From Patescibacteria group bacterium (GTDB taxonomy: Bacteria > Patescibacteriota > Minisyncoccia > Phycocordibacterales > SBAW01): a stretch of 39,548 nucleotides of DNA. The position numbers were made by a program, and so were the translations under genes. The notes under the pieces are model-generated. The model worked only from the letters and a program-made list of their open reading frames with translations. It did not search any database and was not told the origin of the DNA. The stretch is taken from contig JAZKAA010000005.1 in assembly GCA_040389385.1 (NCBI GenBank), forward strand, positions 9,094 to 48,641. Reading direction: 5' to 3'. Positions 417 to 4,639 of the stretch are shown here, one piece after another (positions within the stretch are counted from its first letter, which is position 1; every line of letters begins with the position of its first letter).

Positions 417-449
417 ATAGTACGCTTATAAAGGACATTGTAAAGGACA
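417..449 (-). promoter_or_regulatory. Sigma70-like promoter overlapped by a TAAAGGACA direct repeat
   Basis: TTTACA-16nt-TACTAT; TAAAGGACA at 429-437 and 441-449 on the + strand. Confidence 0.55.
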
Positions 450-539: not shown

Positions 540-2015
540 TTACTCCACGAAATACTTCTTCTGAATGTCCTTTACAGCATCCTCTTCTTCGGCGGCTTTG
601 CGCTCTTTGCCGCCCTCCCCTAGCGCTTTAAGCTCGTTGTCTTTCAGCACCGCCAGCTCCAGAGCCCGCTTATTTAAATACTCTTCGGTGTTGTGCGCGG
701 GGTCGTCCAATACCTCCTCCAAAAGCGCGTGTAACATCCAGCCCAACCGCGGGCCCGGGCTTTCACGTGTAACATCCATCAGCCGCTTGCCGTCGGTCTT
801 GAGCATGCCTACAGAGATAGGGTCGCGCATAGCCTGTTCTATCATCGCCTGGTACTTACGGAGGCGGAAGGGCTGCTCCTTAGGCCGCCCGGTCCCTATC
901 CGGTCGCAAATACGCAGGTTAACGAGGTCCCAAATGTGCCCTTGGCCGACGTTGGCCACTATGCGGCGCACGGCCGAGAGCGTAACCACCGCCGGGTCGC
1001 TAAAAAACATATGCCACCGCACCAAGCTGACCACCGTAGCGATTGTTTCGCCCGGAAACTTGAGCCGCTGCAATATCTTTTTGGCCATACGGGCCCCGAC
1101 CACCTCGTGGCCATGGAAGGTCCAATCCTTTTTCTCATCGCCCCAGCGCCGGGCCGCCGGCTTGCCAATGTCATGCAAAATAGCCGCCAACCGGACCTCT
1201 AAAGGCCACTCTTTGTCGGCCGCATGCTGCAGCGCACGCAGGTTGTGCTCAAAGACATCGTACTTATGGGCCTGATTTTGCTCTACCCCTACCCCCTCCA
1301 AAAGCTCGGGCAGGATAAAGGGCAAAAGGCCCAGTTTTTGGCACACAATAAGCGCCGGCATGGGCTGCGGCGACATGATTATCCGCACTAGCTCGTCGCG
1401 GATGCGCTCTTGGGATATCCGGCCCAACTGGGCCGCGCACTCCCCCATTGCAGCACTGGTGTCGGGCTCTAAAGCAAAGCCCAACTCGGCCGATAGGCGT
1501 ACTGCGCGCAGGATACGCAGCGCATCCTCATTAAAACGCTCTGTAGGGGCTCCAACTGCCCGTATAACGCCTGTGTCGATGTCTTTTAGCCCATCATAAA
1601 GGTCAATCAACTCCCCTTTGCTGGGGCTATAGGCCAAAGCATTGATAGTAAAGTCGCGGCGCTTAAGATCATCCTCGAGTTTTTGGCTAAAAATAACACT
1701 ATCAGGCCGTCGGGCGTCGCTATACGTGCCCTCGAGCCTATAGGGTGTTACCTCGACGACCTTAAGCTTGTCGTCTGTGACAGCGTCGTTGACCACACCG
1801 ACGGTGCCAAACTCGTTGGTGTAGTAGGTGTGCGGAAATGCGGCCTGGATCTGCTCCGGCGTGGCGTTGGTGGTGACGTCCCAGTCGTTGGGCGTGCGAT
1901 TAAGCAGCAAGTCGCGCACGCACCCCCCTACTACCCACGCCTCAAAACCCGCTTGCTCTAGCGCATCGGTGACCTGTTTGACCTCGGGGGGTATTTTGCT
2001 GGGCTTGAGTTCCAT
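540..2015 (-). CDS. cca: CCA tRNA nucleotidyltransferase (class II) with HD domain
   Basis: VGGCVRD..DWD, RRDFTINA, EDALRILRAVR, SQERI, LHDIGK motifs. Confidence 0.92.
   Translation of the reverse strand: MELKPSKIPPEVKQVTDALEQAGFEAWVVGGCVRDLLLNRTPNDWDVTTNATPEQIQAAFPHTYYTNEFGTVGVVNDAVTDDKLKVVEVTPYRLEGTYSDARRPDSVIFSQKLEDDLKRRDFTINALAYSPSKGELIDLYDGLKDIDTGVIRAVGAPTERFNEDALRILRAVRLSAELGFALEPDTSAAMGECAAQLGRISQERIRDELVRIIMSPQPMPALIVCQKLGLLPFILPELLEGVGVEQNQAHKYDVFEHNLRALQHAADKEWPLEVRLAAILHDIGKPAARRWGDEKKDWTFHGHEVVGARMAKKILQRLKFPGETIATVVSLVRWHMFFSDPAVVTLSAVRRIVANVGQGHIWDLVNLRICDRIGTGRPKEQPFRLRKYQAMIEQAMRDPISVGMLKTDGKRLMDVTRESPGPRLGWMLHALLEEVLDDPAHNTEEYLNKRALELAVLKDNELKALGEGGKERKAAEEEDAVKDIQKKYFVE
759..774. 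promoter_or_regulatory. parS-like palindrome inside cca
   Basis: Reverse complement TGTTACACGTGAAAGC, 14/16 to the TGTTNCACGTGAAACA consensus. Confidence 0.6.
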
Positions 2016-2194: not shown

Positions 2195-2866
2195 ATGATG
2201 AGGAGCGACAAGGATGTTGCCACAGCTTTGCGGAGGGCTGGGAAGAGTTACCGAGAAATCAGAAAGGAAACGGGGGCGTCTCTCAGCACGTTGTGCCTAT
2301 GGTTTAAAGATCTTGAGTGGTCCAAGGATATAGGTAAAAAGCTTATTTTCCAACAGATTTCAGACAGTACCACAAAAATAATTGAGCTAAATAAAATCCG
2401 TGGCTCCCGACTCGATACCCTCTATGATTTAGGAAGAAAAGTTGCGAGTCAGGAATTCGAAAAATTGAAGACAGATCCCCTATTTGTAGCAGGAATCGTT
2501 GCCTATTGGGGTGAAGGAGACAAAGCCACCAAACATCTTTGTAGGCTTGCAAATAGTGACCCGGCAATGGTCCGCCTTTTTTGGCTTTTTCTTACTAAAA
2601 AATGCGGTATCCCCGGTAGTAAAATTAGCTGCTGGTTGATCCTATATCCCGATTTGGACGAACAAGTTCTGAAAAAACGATGGAGTTTGGAGACCAAAAT
2701 ACCTATAGAAAACTTTAAAAAAGCCACCTTTATTCGGGGTAGACATCCGACAAAGAGGAACGGCTATGGAATTTGTAGTATAGTTGTTTCCAGTCGTTTT
2801 TTTAAAGAAAAAATGTTAGTATGGCTTCGTCTGATAGCAGAGGAAATGAATGCGGATATGGTCTAA
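2195..2866 (+). CDS. HTH plus LAGLIDADG-like putative endonuclease overlapping the tRNA-Gly 5' end
   Basis: N-terminal HTH-like LRRAGKSYREI; FVAGIVAYWGEG helix followed by LANSDPAMV; AT-richer than neighbours; last 15 nt lie inside the tRNA. Confidence 0.65.
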   Translation: MMRSDKDVATALRRAGKSYREIRKETGASLSTLCLWFKDLEWSKDIGKKLIFQQISDSTTKIIELNKIRGSRLDTLYDLGRKVASQEFEKLKTDPLFVAGIVAYWGEGDKATKHLCRLANSDPAMVRLFWLFLTKKCGIPGSKISCWLILYPDLDEQVLKKRWSLETKIPIENFKKATFIRGRHPTKRNGYGICSIVVSSRFFKEKMLVWLRLIAEEMNADMV

Positions 2867-2922
2867 TGGTATGACAAGTGGTTGCCAATCACTTAGCGGG
2901 AGTTCGATTCTCCCTATCCGCA
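2852..2922 (+). tRNA. tRNA-Gly(GCC)
   Basis: Acceptor GCGGATA/TATCCGC, anticodon loop TT-GCC-AA, GTTCGATTC T-loop. Confidence 0.93.
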
Positions 2923-3020
2923 CAGTCGAGTGAGAAAACGCAGAAAAAGCTTGCTTTTATCTGCTTTTGCGAGCGAGCAAGCTGATATGTACCCATATCC
3001 GCACAAAGAACAATAGAAGT

Positions 3021-3180
3021 TAAAAGACAGCCAGGGTGTGGACAGCAAATTTGTTGAAAAGTAAAGCTAATCTCCCACAACTGTGGATAAACTTGGGGAC
3101 ATGTGCATAAAAGACAGCCCCACAGCGCCAAAATGTCCTTAAATTCACTATTTCTTCAGATTCAAACGTTTCAATAGTAA
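3021..3180. promoter_or_regulatory. DnaA-box cluster with AT-rich flank (candidate oriC or DnaA-box cluster)
   Basis: TGTGGATAA 3082-3090 (perfect), TGTGCATAA 3102-3110, degenerate boxes at 3037, 3052 and 3094; another perfect box at 2151-2159; AT-rich stretch 3138-3180. Confidence 0.55.
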
Positions 3181-3355
3181 CGTTACACATGAAAACGGCT
3201 AAAAGACAGCTCGGCGATCAGGGAGAGGAAGTCGCCTGCAAGTATCTGGCAGGGAAAGGCTATACGGTACTAGAGCGCAACTACCTTAAGCCATGGGGGG
3301 AGATCGATATCCTGGCGGAGAAGGCGAAAAGACTATATTTTATTGAGGTAAAGTC

Positions 3356-3371
3356 CGTTTCACGTGAAAGT
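3356..3371. promoter_or_regulatory. parS-like palindrome in yraN (encodes VSRE)
   Basis: CGTTTCACGTGAAAGT, 13/16 to consensus. Confidence 0.6.
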
Positions 3372-3550
3372 GTGAGGGGAGAGAGTCTATCCCCTCCAAG
3401 TAGTTAAATATAAGCAAATACGATATAATATTTACTCCCACCCCCTACAACTGAAAAACCTTGCGAACAGAGTCCTGCCTTGGGGCTCCGGTTACTCGCA
3501 AGGTTTCCGTCTCCAGGGTGGGACTTTGTTACAAGCTAAAAACCTTGCGT

Positions 3551-3682
3551 ATGAGTCTTGAGAAAGACCGTGTATGGCCGTATAAGCCGTGTAGAAAGCA
3601 TTTCTTGGGCGTCTGGACAGAAGACCCGTGTACGGTGTGCGGGGCTACTAAAAAACGGCCTGACGACTGGGTAGAAAAGTAA
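3551..3682 (+). CDS. 43-aa Cys/His micro-protein carried by the element
   Basis: MSLEKDRVWPYKPCRKHFLGVWTEDPCTVCGATKKRPDDWVEK; CxxH...CxxC; TATAAT at 3424-3429 and a structured leader upstream. Confidence 0.5.
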   Translation: MSLEKDRVWPYKPCRKHFLGVWTEDPCTVCGATKKRPDDWVEK

Positions 3683-3728
3683 CTGTGCATAACCTCCCTT
3701 TGGACTTTTTGAAAGTCGTGTTTGTATA

Positions 3729-4020
3729 GGAGTAATGCTTCGTAGTCGCGAGGCAGGACGTTTACCCCTAACCTAAAGTTTTATGACTATAGGAGGGTGG
3801 ATTAAGGGTGGTTACGTTCGCTAGGCAAAGGTTAAGCCTGGACATTCAACCGCCGAGGTACTCCCGAAAGAATAAGTGAATCCCGCAACTGGGACGACTC
3901 TTTCCAAGAGGAATCCCAATCGCAGAAGAGGAGGGTAAACCACCAATCCTGATGCGATTTTAGGAGAAACGAACAAAGTAGGGACGAAAGCAAAAGGCAC
4001 CCCGGAAAGGTGCCTTTTGT
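3729..4020 (+). ncRNA. Candidate ~290-nt multi-stem RNA inside the element
   Basis: No ORF in the track; many nested stems; ends in the terminator CAAAAGGCACC-ccggaaa-GGTGCCTTTTG. Confidence 0.55.
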
Positions 4021-4196
4021 CGTCGCGAGGTTGTGTACGGTCTGTACCTCCTAACTATGTCCTTTACCCTGTCCTTTATCAAGGGTTTTTATCCCCAGAA
4101 GCCTTAAATATAGCTAAAACGGGTGAAATCTACGTAAATCCCCTATACACACCATACCACGGTACTTACTTGCGGGGGATAGGCCCTGAGGGGAGA

Positions 4197-4212
4197 GGGT
4201 TCACGTGTAACC
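4197..4212. promoter_or_regulatory. parS-like palindrome in the 3' half of yraN
   Basis: Reverse complement GGTTACACGTGAACCC, 13/16 to consensus. Confidence 0.5.
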
Positions 4213-4485
4213 GACGGCTATAGGCCAGAGGAGAATGTCCATCCGGCCAAGCTCAAACGGCTCCATAGGGCTATCCAAACTTACCTCTTGGACCATAAGG
4301 TCAAGGACGACATAGAGTGGCAGATAGACGTGGCCTGCGTGTACTTGGACTTTGGTACGCGTAAGGCGAGGGTGGAAATGCTGGAAAATGTGATATTGTA
4401 AGGGTACTTTGGTGTAAAGGACACATAAAGGACATCGGGGCGTTCTCTATAGGGAGTAACGCTTGTGTGGGGTGAAAAATTTAGT

Positions 4486-4556
4486 CGGGGCGTAGTATAG
4501 TGGTAGTACACTTGCTTTGGGAGCATGAGGTCTGAGTCCGATTCTCAGCGCCCCGA
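4486..4556 (+). tRNA. tRNA-Pro(TGG)
   Basis: Acceptor CGGGGCG/CGCCCCG, anticodon loop TT-TGG-GA; T-loop reads GTCCGATTC. Confidence 0.9.
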
Positions 4557-4604
4557 CTAAGTTTTTCACCGGATGTCTGGGAGACATCCGCGGCCCCGAA
4601 GGGG

Positions 4605-4639
4605 ATGAGGTCTGAGTCCGATTCTCAGCGCCCCGACCA
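4605..4639 (+). repeat. Exact 33-bp duplicate of the tRNA-Pro 3' end, this copy ending in CCA
   Basis: ATGAGGTCTGAGTCCGATTCTCAGCGCCCCGAC at 4525-4557 and 4605-4637. Confidence 0.9.

Follow-up and report, generated by a model that had tools for sequence, protein, structure and literature searches.

We found that the yraN gene of this Patescibacteria group bacterium is interrupted by an insert of 806 bp at positions 3382-4187 of the window (the whole stretch of 39,548 nt that was analysed). The insert is probably a non-autonomous DNA transposon, namely a mobile insertion cassette, which an IS1595-family transposase may have moved and which carries a cargo unit headed by a leader RNA. While the anatomy can be read directly, we infer the mechanism of insertion, and the following steps are therefore a proposal. 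A DDE transposase supplied in trans would recognise the two imperfect 24-bp ends and cut the target with a stagger of 8 bp, or possibly of 10 bp; repair of this cut would leave the direct repeat. The landing spot, which has two adjacent parS-like sites on its sides, is a variable loop of yraN. The event is ordinary in kind; the cargo and the context are unusual.

The break in yraN lies at 3381/3382 and the gene picks up again at 4196. Based on PF02021 and an alignment of 30 orthologues, the N-terminal part (UPF0102, PD-(D/E)xK-type) covers 3189-3381 on the plus strand, corresponding to 64 codons and one base, and the C-terminal part covers 4196-4401 on the same strand, corresponding to the remaining two bases of the split codon followed by 67 codons and a stop. 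Accordingly, Pfam matches 3189-3407 to positions 1-47 of the 80 in PF02021 (E 7e-14) and 4183-4398 to positions 49-80 (E 1.2e-3). As it stands, the N-terminal frame reads into the insert and ends at a stop codon at 3405-3407. Taking out 3382-4195 (814 nt) restores a frame of 399 nt that encodes 132 residues (64 residues, one split codon and 67 residues), and this restored YraN aligns end to end with all 30 orthologues examined, with a best identity of 80%. Both the Pfam halves and the alignment thus agree with the sequence-only reading, which had described a cut gene with its 67 C-terminal residues resuming 814 nt downstream and a 132-aa frame upon excision. The insertion point is in a variable loop of YraN.

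The interruption is found only in this genome: of the 79 other genomes of the genus, 65 have yraN as one match without a break, and one relative (G026) shows the empty-site sequence of the locus. The earlier suggestion to look for intact alleles is therefore answered at the level of the genus, while none of the contigs of the read samples searched holds an empty-site allele from the same strain, so that movement is read from anatomy. A joint between 3370 and 4513 in X3 (side of 34, 85% likeness) was given no weight as an empty site, being the DNA of a relative. The insertion is recent, given that neither half of yraN has decayed and that the two copies of the duplication are identical.

The ends of the insert are of the TATCCCCnnCAAGTA type. 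The left terminal inverted repeat, AGAGTCTATCCCCTCCAAGTAGTT (3382-3405, plus strand), matches the right one, whose reverse complement is AGGGCCTATCCCCCGCAAGTAAGT (4164-4187, minus strand), at 18 of 24 positions, and a repeat search gives 21 nt at 81%. Directly outside these ends lie the two copies of the target-site duplication, GAGGGGAG, at 3374-3381 and 4188-4195, identified from the sequence and a genome-wide control. The identity between the direct repeats reaches 11 nt (3373-3383 and 4187-4197); the target duplication can accordingly be taken as 8 bp long or, if both ends are placed one base further in, as 10 bp long. As a control for chance, we took all pairs of identical 8-mers at distances of 200-4000 nt across the entire 729-kb genome (n = 77,994). 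Only one pair, that of the cassette, has at least 17 of 21 complementary bases directly inside the repeats; behind it come one pair with 16 and three pairs with 15. The imperfect inverted repeats of about 25 bp and the direct repeat of 8 bp (or 10 bp) claimed at the outset are thus upheld, and the arrangement is unique in the genome.

A mobile insertion cassette is defined in PMC3913671 by two inverted repeats, the lack of a transposase and a target duplication. The insert shows all three: inverted repeats, no transposase inside or nearby, and a target duplication. These results support the description of the insert as a transposase-free cassette in an otherwise intact yraN.

The cassette begins with an inward-facing promoter-like site (3401-3429, plus strand), in which reading of the sequence gives a perfect -10 TATAAT at 3424-3429 and a weak -35 TAGTTA at 3401-3406. 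The consensus promoter scan did not list this site, its -35 being below threshold. The site is followed by a structured leader (3446-3550, plus strand), recognised from its similarity to the relative G008, from four instances, from covariation and from folds. Homology to G008 begins at 3426 and amounts to 82% identity over 124 nt. The predicted helices are P1 (3456-3466 with 3496-3506), P2 (3470-3475 with 3483-3488) and a long, terminator-like helix B (3466-3483 with 3513-3530). A third pairing joins the loop to the 3' copy, the second copy of AAACCTTGCG at 3540-3549, which adjoins the start codon.

Across the four sequences, helix B has 18 pairs with 70 of 70 cells paired and 4 pairs compensatory, P1 has 11 pairs, all paired, with 2 compensatory, and the loop with the 3' copy has 10 pairs, all paired, with 1 compensatory. 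The four sequences fall into two subgroups, and these compensatory changes therefore amount to essentially one evolutionary contrast; within that limit, the helices are mutually exclusive and each shows compensatory change. The leader is real and, judging from these pairings, attenuator-like, with three mutually exclusive helices. It would form either P1 and P2 or the long terminator-like helix, and the third pairing could cover the region of the start codon. Accordingly, we infer a switch that acts by transcription attenuation and on translation. The structured leader proposed from the letters is consequently a conserved RNA with covarying helices.

True instances of this leader number four, and the genes behind them are two methyltransferases, a 29-codon ORF and the 43-codon ORF of the cassette. 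Pattern scans returned 5 stretches in metagenomes, 2 of them true (the new L091 and the G008 contig), 4 stretches in genomes, 2 of them true (G008 and G026 again), and none in viral sequences. The remaining stretches are chance matches in coding DNA, and two further hits in the genus with the covariance model R1 were both plain terminator hairpins. As in riboswitch and attenuator leaders, an upstream pairing and a terminator-like helix compete with each other, and the translation start is covered by one more pairing; unlike them, the leader of the cassette matches no Rfam family, is found in four instances only and heads differing genes.

Behind the leader, the 43-aa ORF (3551-3682, plus strand, from the ORF list) has Cys or His at residues 14, 17, 27 and 30, and its start codon is positioned as are the gene starts behind the other three leaders. 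We found no relative by word-index protein search, Pfam or PHROGs. In the ESM Atlas the best score was 0.89, to unnamed clusters and below the level that counts, and a full HMMER scan of 1.84 billion representatives gave five hits, all of them repeat-protein artefacts. The AlphaFold2 model made without an alignment is of low confidence (mean pLDDT 54.5). The peptide cargo of the sequence-only reading therefore holds as an ORF at a conserved start position and is otherwise an orphan. Its origin as a remnant of an IS1595 zinc ribbon was rejected, as there was no Pfam hit. Homology of the ORF or of the 3' stretch to the regions behind the other leaders was rejected as well, since blastn matched the leader only.

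The next 306 nt (3683-3988) had been described as a large structured RNA, a description that our results do not support. The stretch has no plus-strand ORF of at least 30 aa, and its minus-strand ORFs belong to no family. The case for an RNA consists of folding energy, and the z-scores of 3683-4025 are similarly low on both strands (-4.1 on the plus and -4.8 on the minus strand). Searches of the 79 genomes of the genus and of phage and plasmid collections gave no DNA match to 3683-3988. Rfam at gathering score returned only tRNAs over the whole window, and with E up to 10 on 3300-4300 only chance-level RsaE (E 1.3) and mir-578 (E 5.5).

The stretch is followed by a perfect 11-bp hairpin (3989-4020; 3991-4001 paired with 4009-4019), found by repeat search and folding. 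Flanked by runs of A and T, this hairpin resembles a terminator acting in both directions; it is not among the hits of the terminator scan. A hairpin of similar style follows a gene in a relative (L086). Further on, at 4056-4097 on the plus strand, BLAST matches, aligned contexts and motif counts identify a motif typical of the genus, TATGTCCTTTACCCTGTCCTTTAT followed by TTATCCCCA, with short BLAST matches in about 17 genomes of the genus. The promoter motif at 4056-4079 is followed by a -10 box in the relatives, and this box is missing here. An array of repeats in the insert was ruled out, with only one 20-nt direct repeat found around the leader.

Taken in order, the cassette would be read as one inward-facing expression unit: a -10 box, a leader of roughly 105 nt, the 43-codon ORF, about 300 nt, and the two-way terminator-like hairpin. 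The ORF and the 3' stretch may also be the remains of a larger ancestor. It is quite conceivable, if somewhat short of an even chance, that the cargo is dead weight, the insert being an internal-deletion remnant of a larger transposon in which the ORF and the 3' stretch have decayed and have no function. Consistent with decay, the ORF has no relative or family and a low-confidence fold, the 3' stretch has no homologue and the promoter motif at 4056-4079 lacks its -10 box. Furthermore, the same leader heads a 29-codon ORF in one relative and a 238-aa methyltransferase in another, so the slot behind it turns over. Against decay speak a leader that is intact in all three pairings, a start codon at the conserved position, a perfect -10 hexamer at the start and a perfect hairpin at the end; nor is any trace of a transposase reading frame left.

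Whichever way the cargo is read, the transposase that would have moved the cassette was sought across the genome and its relatives. Profile searches of this 92%-complete genome gave no match to the transposase families PF12762, PF01610, PF00872, PF00665 and PF01609. The ORFs of the insert match no Pfam or PHROG family, and tblastn with the IS1595 transposases of the genus found no remnant within it (noise only, best E 0.06). The lack of a match to PF12762, the DDE_Tnp_IS1595 family, in both insert and genome means that the element is not itself an insertion sequence, as expected for a non-autonomous derivative. The cassette is present in one copy in the genome; none of the 79 other genomes of the genus contains it as a whole, and the insert has no match in phage and plasmid collections. 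In 400 other genomes of the order, the end pattern does not occur as an inverted pair (6 single hits compared to 7 control hits); neither there nor in the genus was a full-length element with these ends found. IS1595-family transposases are present in 4 of the 79 other genomes of the genus; none of the transposases found is flanked by cassette-like ends, and the four IS1595-type loci of the genus have no matching inverted repeats. A possible right end in L025 (8-nt match) was dropped because there is no duplication there. The search for a cognate transposase and sister copies recommended at the outset thus yielded neither. As far as searched, the cassette looks stranded, with a single copy and no transposase detected in its genome.

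Next, we compared the ends with those of eight plasmid-borne IS1595-family elements for which ends were worked out. Three of the eight have G(G/C)nTAT(C/G)C-type termini and duplications of 8-10 bp: ISAcr1 (ends CTTGCCTATCCGG, 8 bp), an element of Methylocella tundrae p1 (ends A(C/T)GGGTATCCCCTTCACG, 10 bp) and an element of a Legionella antarctica plasmid (ends CAGGGCTATGCAG, 8 bp). A block of the right end of the cassette, GCCTATCC, is identical to ISAcr1 at 8 of 8 positions and at the same distance from the tip. The left-end block, TATCCCCTCCAAG, is identical to the end of the Methylocella element at 11 of 13 positions; by our own arithmetic, the chance of such a match at fixed register over about 60 comparisons is roughly 6e-4. 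Of the other five reference elements, three have CCTGATTACCC ends and two no clear ends by scan, so the likeness covers only part of the IS1595 family.

The duplication length also fits, IS1595 duplications being usually 8 bp according to PMC8101967: the cassette has 8 bp, with 10 bp also readable, and terminal repeats like those of three of the eight members. End shape and duplication length together point, with better than even confidence and short of proof, to an IS1595-family transposase. The assignment made by the sequence-only reading is therefore borne out for the ends and the duplication, and lacks a cognate transposase or sister copy. We take the ISSod11 subgroup label, and the end consensus of that group, as an assumption; this consensus was not found in the literature searched. 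Similarly, IS1595 members with passengers are in print, as the same reading had claimed, but those described in PMC11891212 have a transposase, whereas the derivatives claimed were non-autonomous.

Could a different transposase family have moved the same kind of cassette? Duplications of 8-10 bp are not exclusive to IS1595; ISL3, IS256, IS4, IS6 and ISAs1 make them too. With the duplication readable as 8 or 10 bp, the end likeness based on three reference elements and no cognate IS1595 transposase found with these ends, such an origin has something in its favour. We nonetheless consider it unlikely, because the terminal blocks match IS1595 ends at equal distance from the tip (8/8 for ISAcr1, 11/13 for the Methylocella element), and because ISL3, IS256, rve and DDE_Tnp_1 transposases were likewise not found in the genome.

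The cassette lies between two sites that resemble the 16-nt palindromic consensus of parS. Site 1, CGTTTCACGTGAAAGT (3356-3371), resembles the consensus and falls on the SVSRE codons of yraN; site 2, GGGTTCACGTGTAACC (4198-4213), resembles the consensus and has a core 8-mer. In the whole genome these are the only two sites with at most 3 mismatches to this consensus. The core 8-mers TTCACGTG/CACGTGAA occur five times in the genome, four of them in the window at 762, 3359, 3361 and 4200, and before the insertion the TTCACGTG cores of the two sites were spaced by 27 nt. All 30 related loci have 2-5 parS-like sites each (at most 4 mismatches), most of them with a site at the same yraN codons as site 1, and 11 of the 30 have a paired second site 15-39 nt away. 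A ParB_N domain was found on contig C3. The sequences thus strongly support a putative parS-like cluster at the yraN locus in all 30 related loci examined, and they agree with the original claim that the cassette sits between two such sites formerly 27 nt apart, both conserved across the genus.

These sites and the leader allow a bolder reading, in which the cassette is a working mobile module: a new attenuator or riboswitch-like class of leader, which in relatives heads a swappable slot of methyltransferases or micro-ORFs, would control a small zinc-binding protein and a partner RNA. Landing between paired parS sites would then not be random, since the transposase or the cassette would be drawn to a centromere region bound by ParB. 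We regard this reading as a long shot.

Another possibility is removal at the RNA level: the insert would then be an intron of group I or II, or an intervening sequence of another kind, and yraN would be expressed whole. The halves of yraN are intact, taking out 814 nt restores the frame exactly, the insert folds well, and inserts in rRNA genes are a known feature of relatives of this group, as reported in PMC11270868. This is nevertheless very improbable. No group I or II intron or other Rfam model matches, even with E up to 10. A target duplication outside terminal inverted repeats is the signature of DNA transposition, and deletion of any transposon plus its duplication restores the frame. 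Furthermore, in group I introns the 5' exon ends in U and the intron in G, and the 11-nt repeat has no cut point giving both.

Finally, the DNA itself appears authentic. The genome is metagenome-assembled (19 contigs, 92% complete), and in such genomes insertion sequences often stay unassembled. In run X1, which is probably the source sample, Logan contigs span 2600-3794 and 3775-4554 and show zero differences; a second sample, X2, has a contig of 180 nt that is likewise free of differences over 3352-3531. The right junction is thus spanned in one sample and the left junction in two; stretches of the insert that lack X2 or X3 coverage were not counted as evidence. That unrelated pieces were fused within yraN, as might be feared of a window taken from 19 metagenomic contigs, is scarcely credible, given that the independent X1 assembly spans both junctions and the second sample the left one without a difference, and that a chimera would not yield inverted ends adjoining a perfect duplication. 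The mis-assembly named beforehand as fatal to the transposon reading is accordingly not borne out.

The mobile insertion cassette that we propose resembles several known systems. Like MIC231 of Bacillus cereus and the qnrD 'mic' of Proteeae, it is bracketed by imperfect inverted repeats, has a target-site duplication and contains a passenger where a transposase would be expected; the repeats of the qnrD element are 24 bp long and differ at six positions (PMC3913671), the very figures of this cassette. MIC231, by contrast, has a demonstrated partner in IS231A, and the cassettes described in PMC3913671 hold enzymes or resistance genes. This one holds a leader-controlled 43-codon ORF and non-coding sequence, in one copy and in an uncultivated host with a reduced genome. 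Transporter IS (tIS) such as ISNha5 are likewise IS1595 members with passenger genes according to PMC11891212, but they keep the transposase that the cassette is without. The ISAcr1, Methylocella and Legionella elements share its end blocks (8/8, 11/13), their distance from the tip and duplications of 8-10 bp, whereas they measure 990-1080 bp and consist almost entirely of a PF12762 transposase gene, of which the cassette has none. MITEs are usually defined as short and present in many copies. They too are non-autonomous, with inverted ends and a target duplication; at 806 bp, single-copy, found in none of the 79 genomes of the genus and carrying an expression unit, the cassette differs from them.

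To our knowledge, mobile DNA has been little described in uncultivated bacteria of the Patescibacteria type with reduced genomes. With its clear boundaries, the cassette exemplifies a recent transposition into a conserved gene, and it supplies a concrete pair of ends for tracing an active transposase. Two by-products may outweigh the cassette itself. One is a compact leader RNA with three competing, covarying pairings ahead of variable genes. The other is that the parS-like cluster of the genus is the yraN locus, with sites inside the coding sequence of yraN.

The yraN gene of the genome under study (G000; 729 kb in 19 contigs, 92% complete; the window is C5:9094-48641) is split in two. Its N-terminal part, an ORF at 3189-3407, matches PF02021 (UPF0102/YraN) over positions 1-47 of 80 (E 7e-14) and the remainder, in the frame 4183-4398, over positions 49-80 (E 1.2e-3), with 806 nt (3382-4187) between them. 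When 3382-4195 is removed in silico, a YraN protein of 132 aa is restored, as a sequence-only reading had proposed, and this protein aligns over its full length with each of the 30 orthologues for which loci were fetched (out of 65 genomes with a match) at 51-80% identity. Elsewhere in the genus (79 other genomes), PF02021 gives a single unbroken match in 65 and no match in 14; two partial matches are found in G000 only. Given the unbroken match in the relatives and the end-to-end alignment, yraN was whole before the insertion. The insertion point is a variable loop with the conserved SVSRE block on one side and the conserved YRPEEN block on the other.

In run X1, probably the source sample, Logan contigs match 2600-3794 and 3775-4554 with zero differences, and one contig of a second sample from the same study spans 3352-3531, also with zero differences. 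Because these contigs cover the junctions, the insert in yraN is not an assembly fault. As for an intact allele, the empty site is visible in the closest relative, G026 (locus L060); none of the contigs seen in the samples carries an uninterrupted yraN of the same strain.

The insert is flanked by GAGGGGAG at 3374-3381 and 4188-4195. The identity of this direct repeat spans 11 nt, so that the duplication can indeed be read in both ways proposed earlier, as 8 bp or, with both ends shifted inward by one base, as 10 bp. The ends are inverted repeats (AGAGTCTATCCCCTCCAAGTAGTT and AGGGCCTATCCCCCGCAAGTAAGT, 18 of 24; 21 nt at 81% in a repeat search). As a chance control, we took all identical 8-mer pairs of the whole genome with a spacing of 200-4000 nt (n = 77,994) and counted complementarity over the 21 nt just inside: at least 17 complementary bases are found in the insert's pair only, 16 in one pair and 15 in three pairs. 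The insert is present once in the genome and was not found in any of the other 79 genus members, where its leader and a 24-nt motif alone give matches. Its ORFs match no protein family, no remnant of the IS1595-type transposases of the genus was detected inside it, and the transposase families PF12762, PF01610, PF00872, PF00665 and PF01609 have zero matches in this 92%-complete genome.

In PMC3913671, a mobile insertion cassette is defined by inverted ends and a target duplication without a transposase, the first being MIC231 of Bacillus cereus, which the IS231A transposase moves in trans. The insert agrees exactly with the definition as worded there. We consider it very probable that the insert is a trans-dependent cassette with inverted ends, and the earlier proposal of a transposase-free cassette splitting yraN is borne out by the ends, the duplication, the genome-wide control and the lack of a transposase match. 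With a length of 806 bp and a single copy, the insert is not a typical MITE; an intron was rejected, as no Rfam intron model matches.

The family of this cassette is less firmly placed. The sequence-only reading had assigned the ends to the ISSod11 group of IS1595, by an end consensus which we, too, take to be that of the group; it was not found in the papers accessible to our literature search. With a transposase from the genus (L025:1153-1974; PF12762, E 7.6e-37) as query, a plasmid search returned 188 records annotated as IS1595 family, and ends were worked out for 8 of them. Three (ISPma1, ISKpn3, ISAeca5) have the termini CCTGATTACCC, two show no clear ends by simple scan and three have ends of the cassette's type: ISAcr1 (CTTGCCTATCCGGTTG, 8-bp duplication GTTCAACG), an element of Methylocella tundrae p1 (A(C/T)GGGTATCCCCTTCACG, 10-bp direct repeat) and one of a Legionella antarctica plasmid (CAGGGCTATGCAGTTGAC, 8-bp duplication). 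ISAcr1 shares GCCTATCC with the cassette's right end at equal distance from the tip, and the left end matches 11 of 13 bases of TATCCCCTCCAAG in the Methylocella element. By our own arithmetic, the chance of 11/13 in a fixed register over ~60 comparisons is near 6e-4. In the IS1595 family, 8-bp duplications are usual, and an N-terminal zinc finger is combined with a DDE domain (PMC8101967). Four of the other 79 genus members encode IS1595-type transposases; no ends like the cassette's were found at these four loci, and no paired cassette-end pattern in 400 other genomes of the order. The end blocks and the 8-10-bp duplications of three of the eight reference elements agree with an IS1595 origin, while the family label is unproven; having compared the ends with IS1595-family elements only, we lean towards this assignment.

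Just upstream of two IS1595-type transposase genes in different genomes of the genus (L025 ~1106-1125; L026, reverse strand), ACTTATCCCTTGACAAC is common to both. It is either a left end or a promoter, and no matching right end was found at these loci.

The cassette's leader (3446-3550) matches no Rfam family. The stretch 3426-3549 is 82% identical to one in G008, another genome of the genus (L011 ~1492-1606, minus strand), 5′ of a ~340-aa methyltransferase-like gene, and a shorter match in G026 (L012 1490-1613) lies 5′ of a 238-aa gene, by our own reading an FkbM-type methyltransferase. Scanning public collections for the leader pattern yielded one more instance, on metagenome contig L091 (280-398, minus strand), the other matches being the same two genomes or chance; a covariance-model search of 80 genomes of the genus gave no further true copy. 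Methyltransferase-like genes follow two of the four leaders, a 29-codon hydrophobic ORF follows the third and the cassette's 43-codon ORF the fourth. Between G026 and L091, the slot behind the leader has homologous flanks and holds a methyltransferase in the former and the hydrophobic ORF in the latter.

The best fold of all four leaders (-42 to -53 kcal/mol) is a long helix (3466-3483 with 3513-3530) followed by a T-rich tail, the terminator style of the genus. In an alternative fold the 5′ half of the long helix goes into P1 (3456-3466 with 3496-3506), plus P2; in a third pairing, the 3′ arm of P1 binds a second copy of AAACCTTGCG (3540-3549) ending 1-2 bases 5′ of the start codon. The long helix, P1/P2 and the third pairing are mutually exclusive. 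When the four sequences are aligned, the long helix has 18 pairs, with all 70 cells paired and both partners changed in 4 of the pairs. P1 has 11 pairs, all paired (2 compensatory), the third pairing has 10, all paired (1 compensatory), and P2, where one row is out of register by a column, is 87.5% paired. As the sequences form two subgroups, these compensatory changes are in effect one contrast, which affects all three pairings together. Such covarying pairings are what a switch between termination, read-through and masking of the start site would need.

3′ of the slot, G026 (L012/L096) and L091 share a short conserved stretch readable as a ~41-47-aa ORF starting MKR(R/H)WY. G008 has a perfect 22-24-nt palindrome with a TACTATGATATATCATAGTA core in three copies (L011 480-504, 1699-1721, 2170-2192), which bracket the leader, its methyltransferase gene and an adjoining TrpR-like gene in the manner of cassette borders or operator sites.

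The 43-codon ORF (3551-3682) starts at the same position as the genes behind the other leaders and has C-x2-H and C-x2-C motifs; no search found a relative, and its structure model is of low confidence. The 306 nt 3′ of it contain no plus-strand ORF of at least 30 aa. Folding z-scores of 3683-4025 are -4.1 (plus strand) and -4.8 (minus strand), no homologue of this stretch was found, and the expression unit terminates in a perfect 11-bp hairpin (3991-4019). Of the cargo first proposed, the structured leader is thus upheld by its four instances and compensatory changes, while the 43-aa peptide and the large structured RNA are unproven.

Right of the hairpin, the cassette carries TATGTCCTTTACCCTGTCCTTTAT and then TTATCCCCA. 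In ~17 genomes of the genus this motif pair is found just 3′ of the cca gene and is followed by a TAnAGT box, a box that the cassette copy lacks. The cassette thus consists in part of lineage-typical sequence. From its place after cca and the adjacent -10-like box, the pair looks like a promoter or operator. A copy 3′ of yraN is conserved in G026. On the minus strand, a stretch of ~270 nt (~160-430) with no ORF noted lies downstream of the promoter-like motif and ends in a strong terminator hairpin near 160-190; Rfam gave nothing convincing for this stretch (best L10_leader, E 0.23), which may be an undescribed small RNA with a conserved position after cca. Tandem TGTCCTTTA motifs, often adjoining a DnaA-box-like TTATCC(C/A)CA, are present in the window at 429-448 (-), 4059-4078 (+) and 4415-4433 (-), and at C3:50737 and C8:8748-8770 on other contigs; GTCCTTTA is found 7 times in the window, where 0.8 would be expected.

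We also examined the landing site with a 16-nt sequence that we take to be the parS consensus. Only two sites in the whole genome have at most 3 mismatches, both in the window (759-774 and 3356-3371); another parS-like site is at 4198-4213. Four of the genome's five TTCACGTG/CACGTGAA 8-mers are at window 762, 3359, 3361 and 4200, and ParB is encoded on another contig. All 30 related yraN loci (L045-L074, 3.3 kb each) have 2-5 sites with at most 4 mismatches, one of them perfect, compared to ~0.13 expected per locus and strand by our own arithmetic. A site is inside yraN, on the SVSRE codons, in 28 loci and just upstream of the gene in two, and a second follows 15-39 nt further on in 11. Throughout the genus, the yraN locus is a parS-like cluster. 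The cassette inserted, as already noted from the sequence, exactly between such a pair, with cores 27 nt apart beforehand; one event supports no statement on targeting.

Further features lie near the tRNA genes. Between tRNA-Arg and tRNA-Gly, which are adjacent in 4 of 6 loci checked for tRNAs, a low-GC 223-aa ORF (2195-2866) gives a weak helix-turn-helix match and shares 15 nt with the tRNA-Gly gene. It has the same place in two of the 30 yraN loci (L055, 80% identity; L062, 61%) and is a second variable insert in the tRNA cluster. In contigs of relatives from two other samples, 39 different letters take the place of the 157 nt 3′ of tRNA-Gly (2924-3080), another indel hot spot beside a tRNA. 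Finally, a 22-nt inverted repeat (4471-4492 and 4549-4570, 95% complementary) encloses tRNA-Pro and extends its acceptor stem, and the last 33 nt of the tRNA (4525-4557) recur 80 nt downstream (4605-4637), where the next ORF starts; this arrangement may be a scar of integration at the tRNA.

Overall, the observation is confirmed and the cassette reading is right in kind: the element is transposase-less and has IS1595-type ends. The insertion of such a cassette is an ordinary event for bacteria; host group, cargo and landing site make the find useful but modest.
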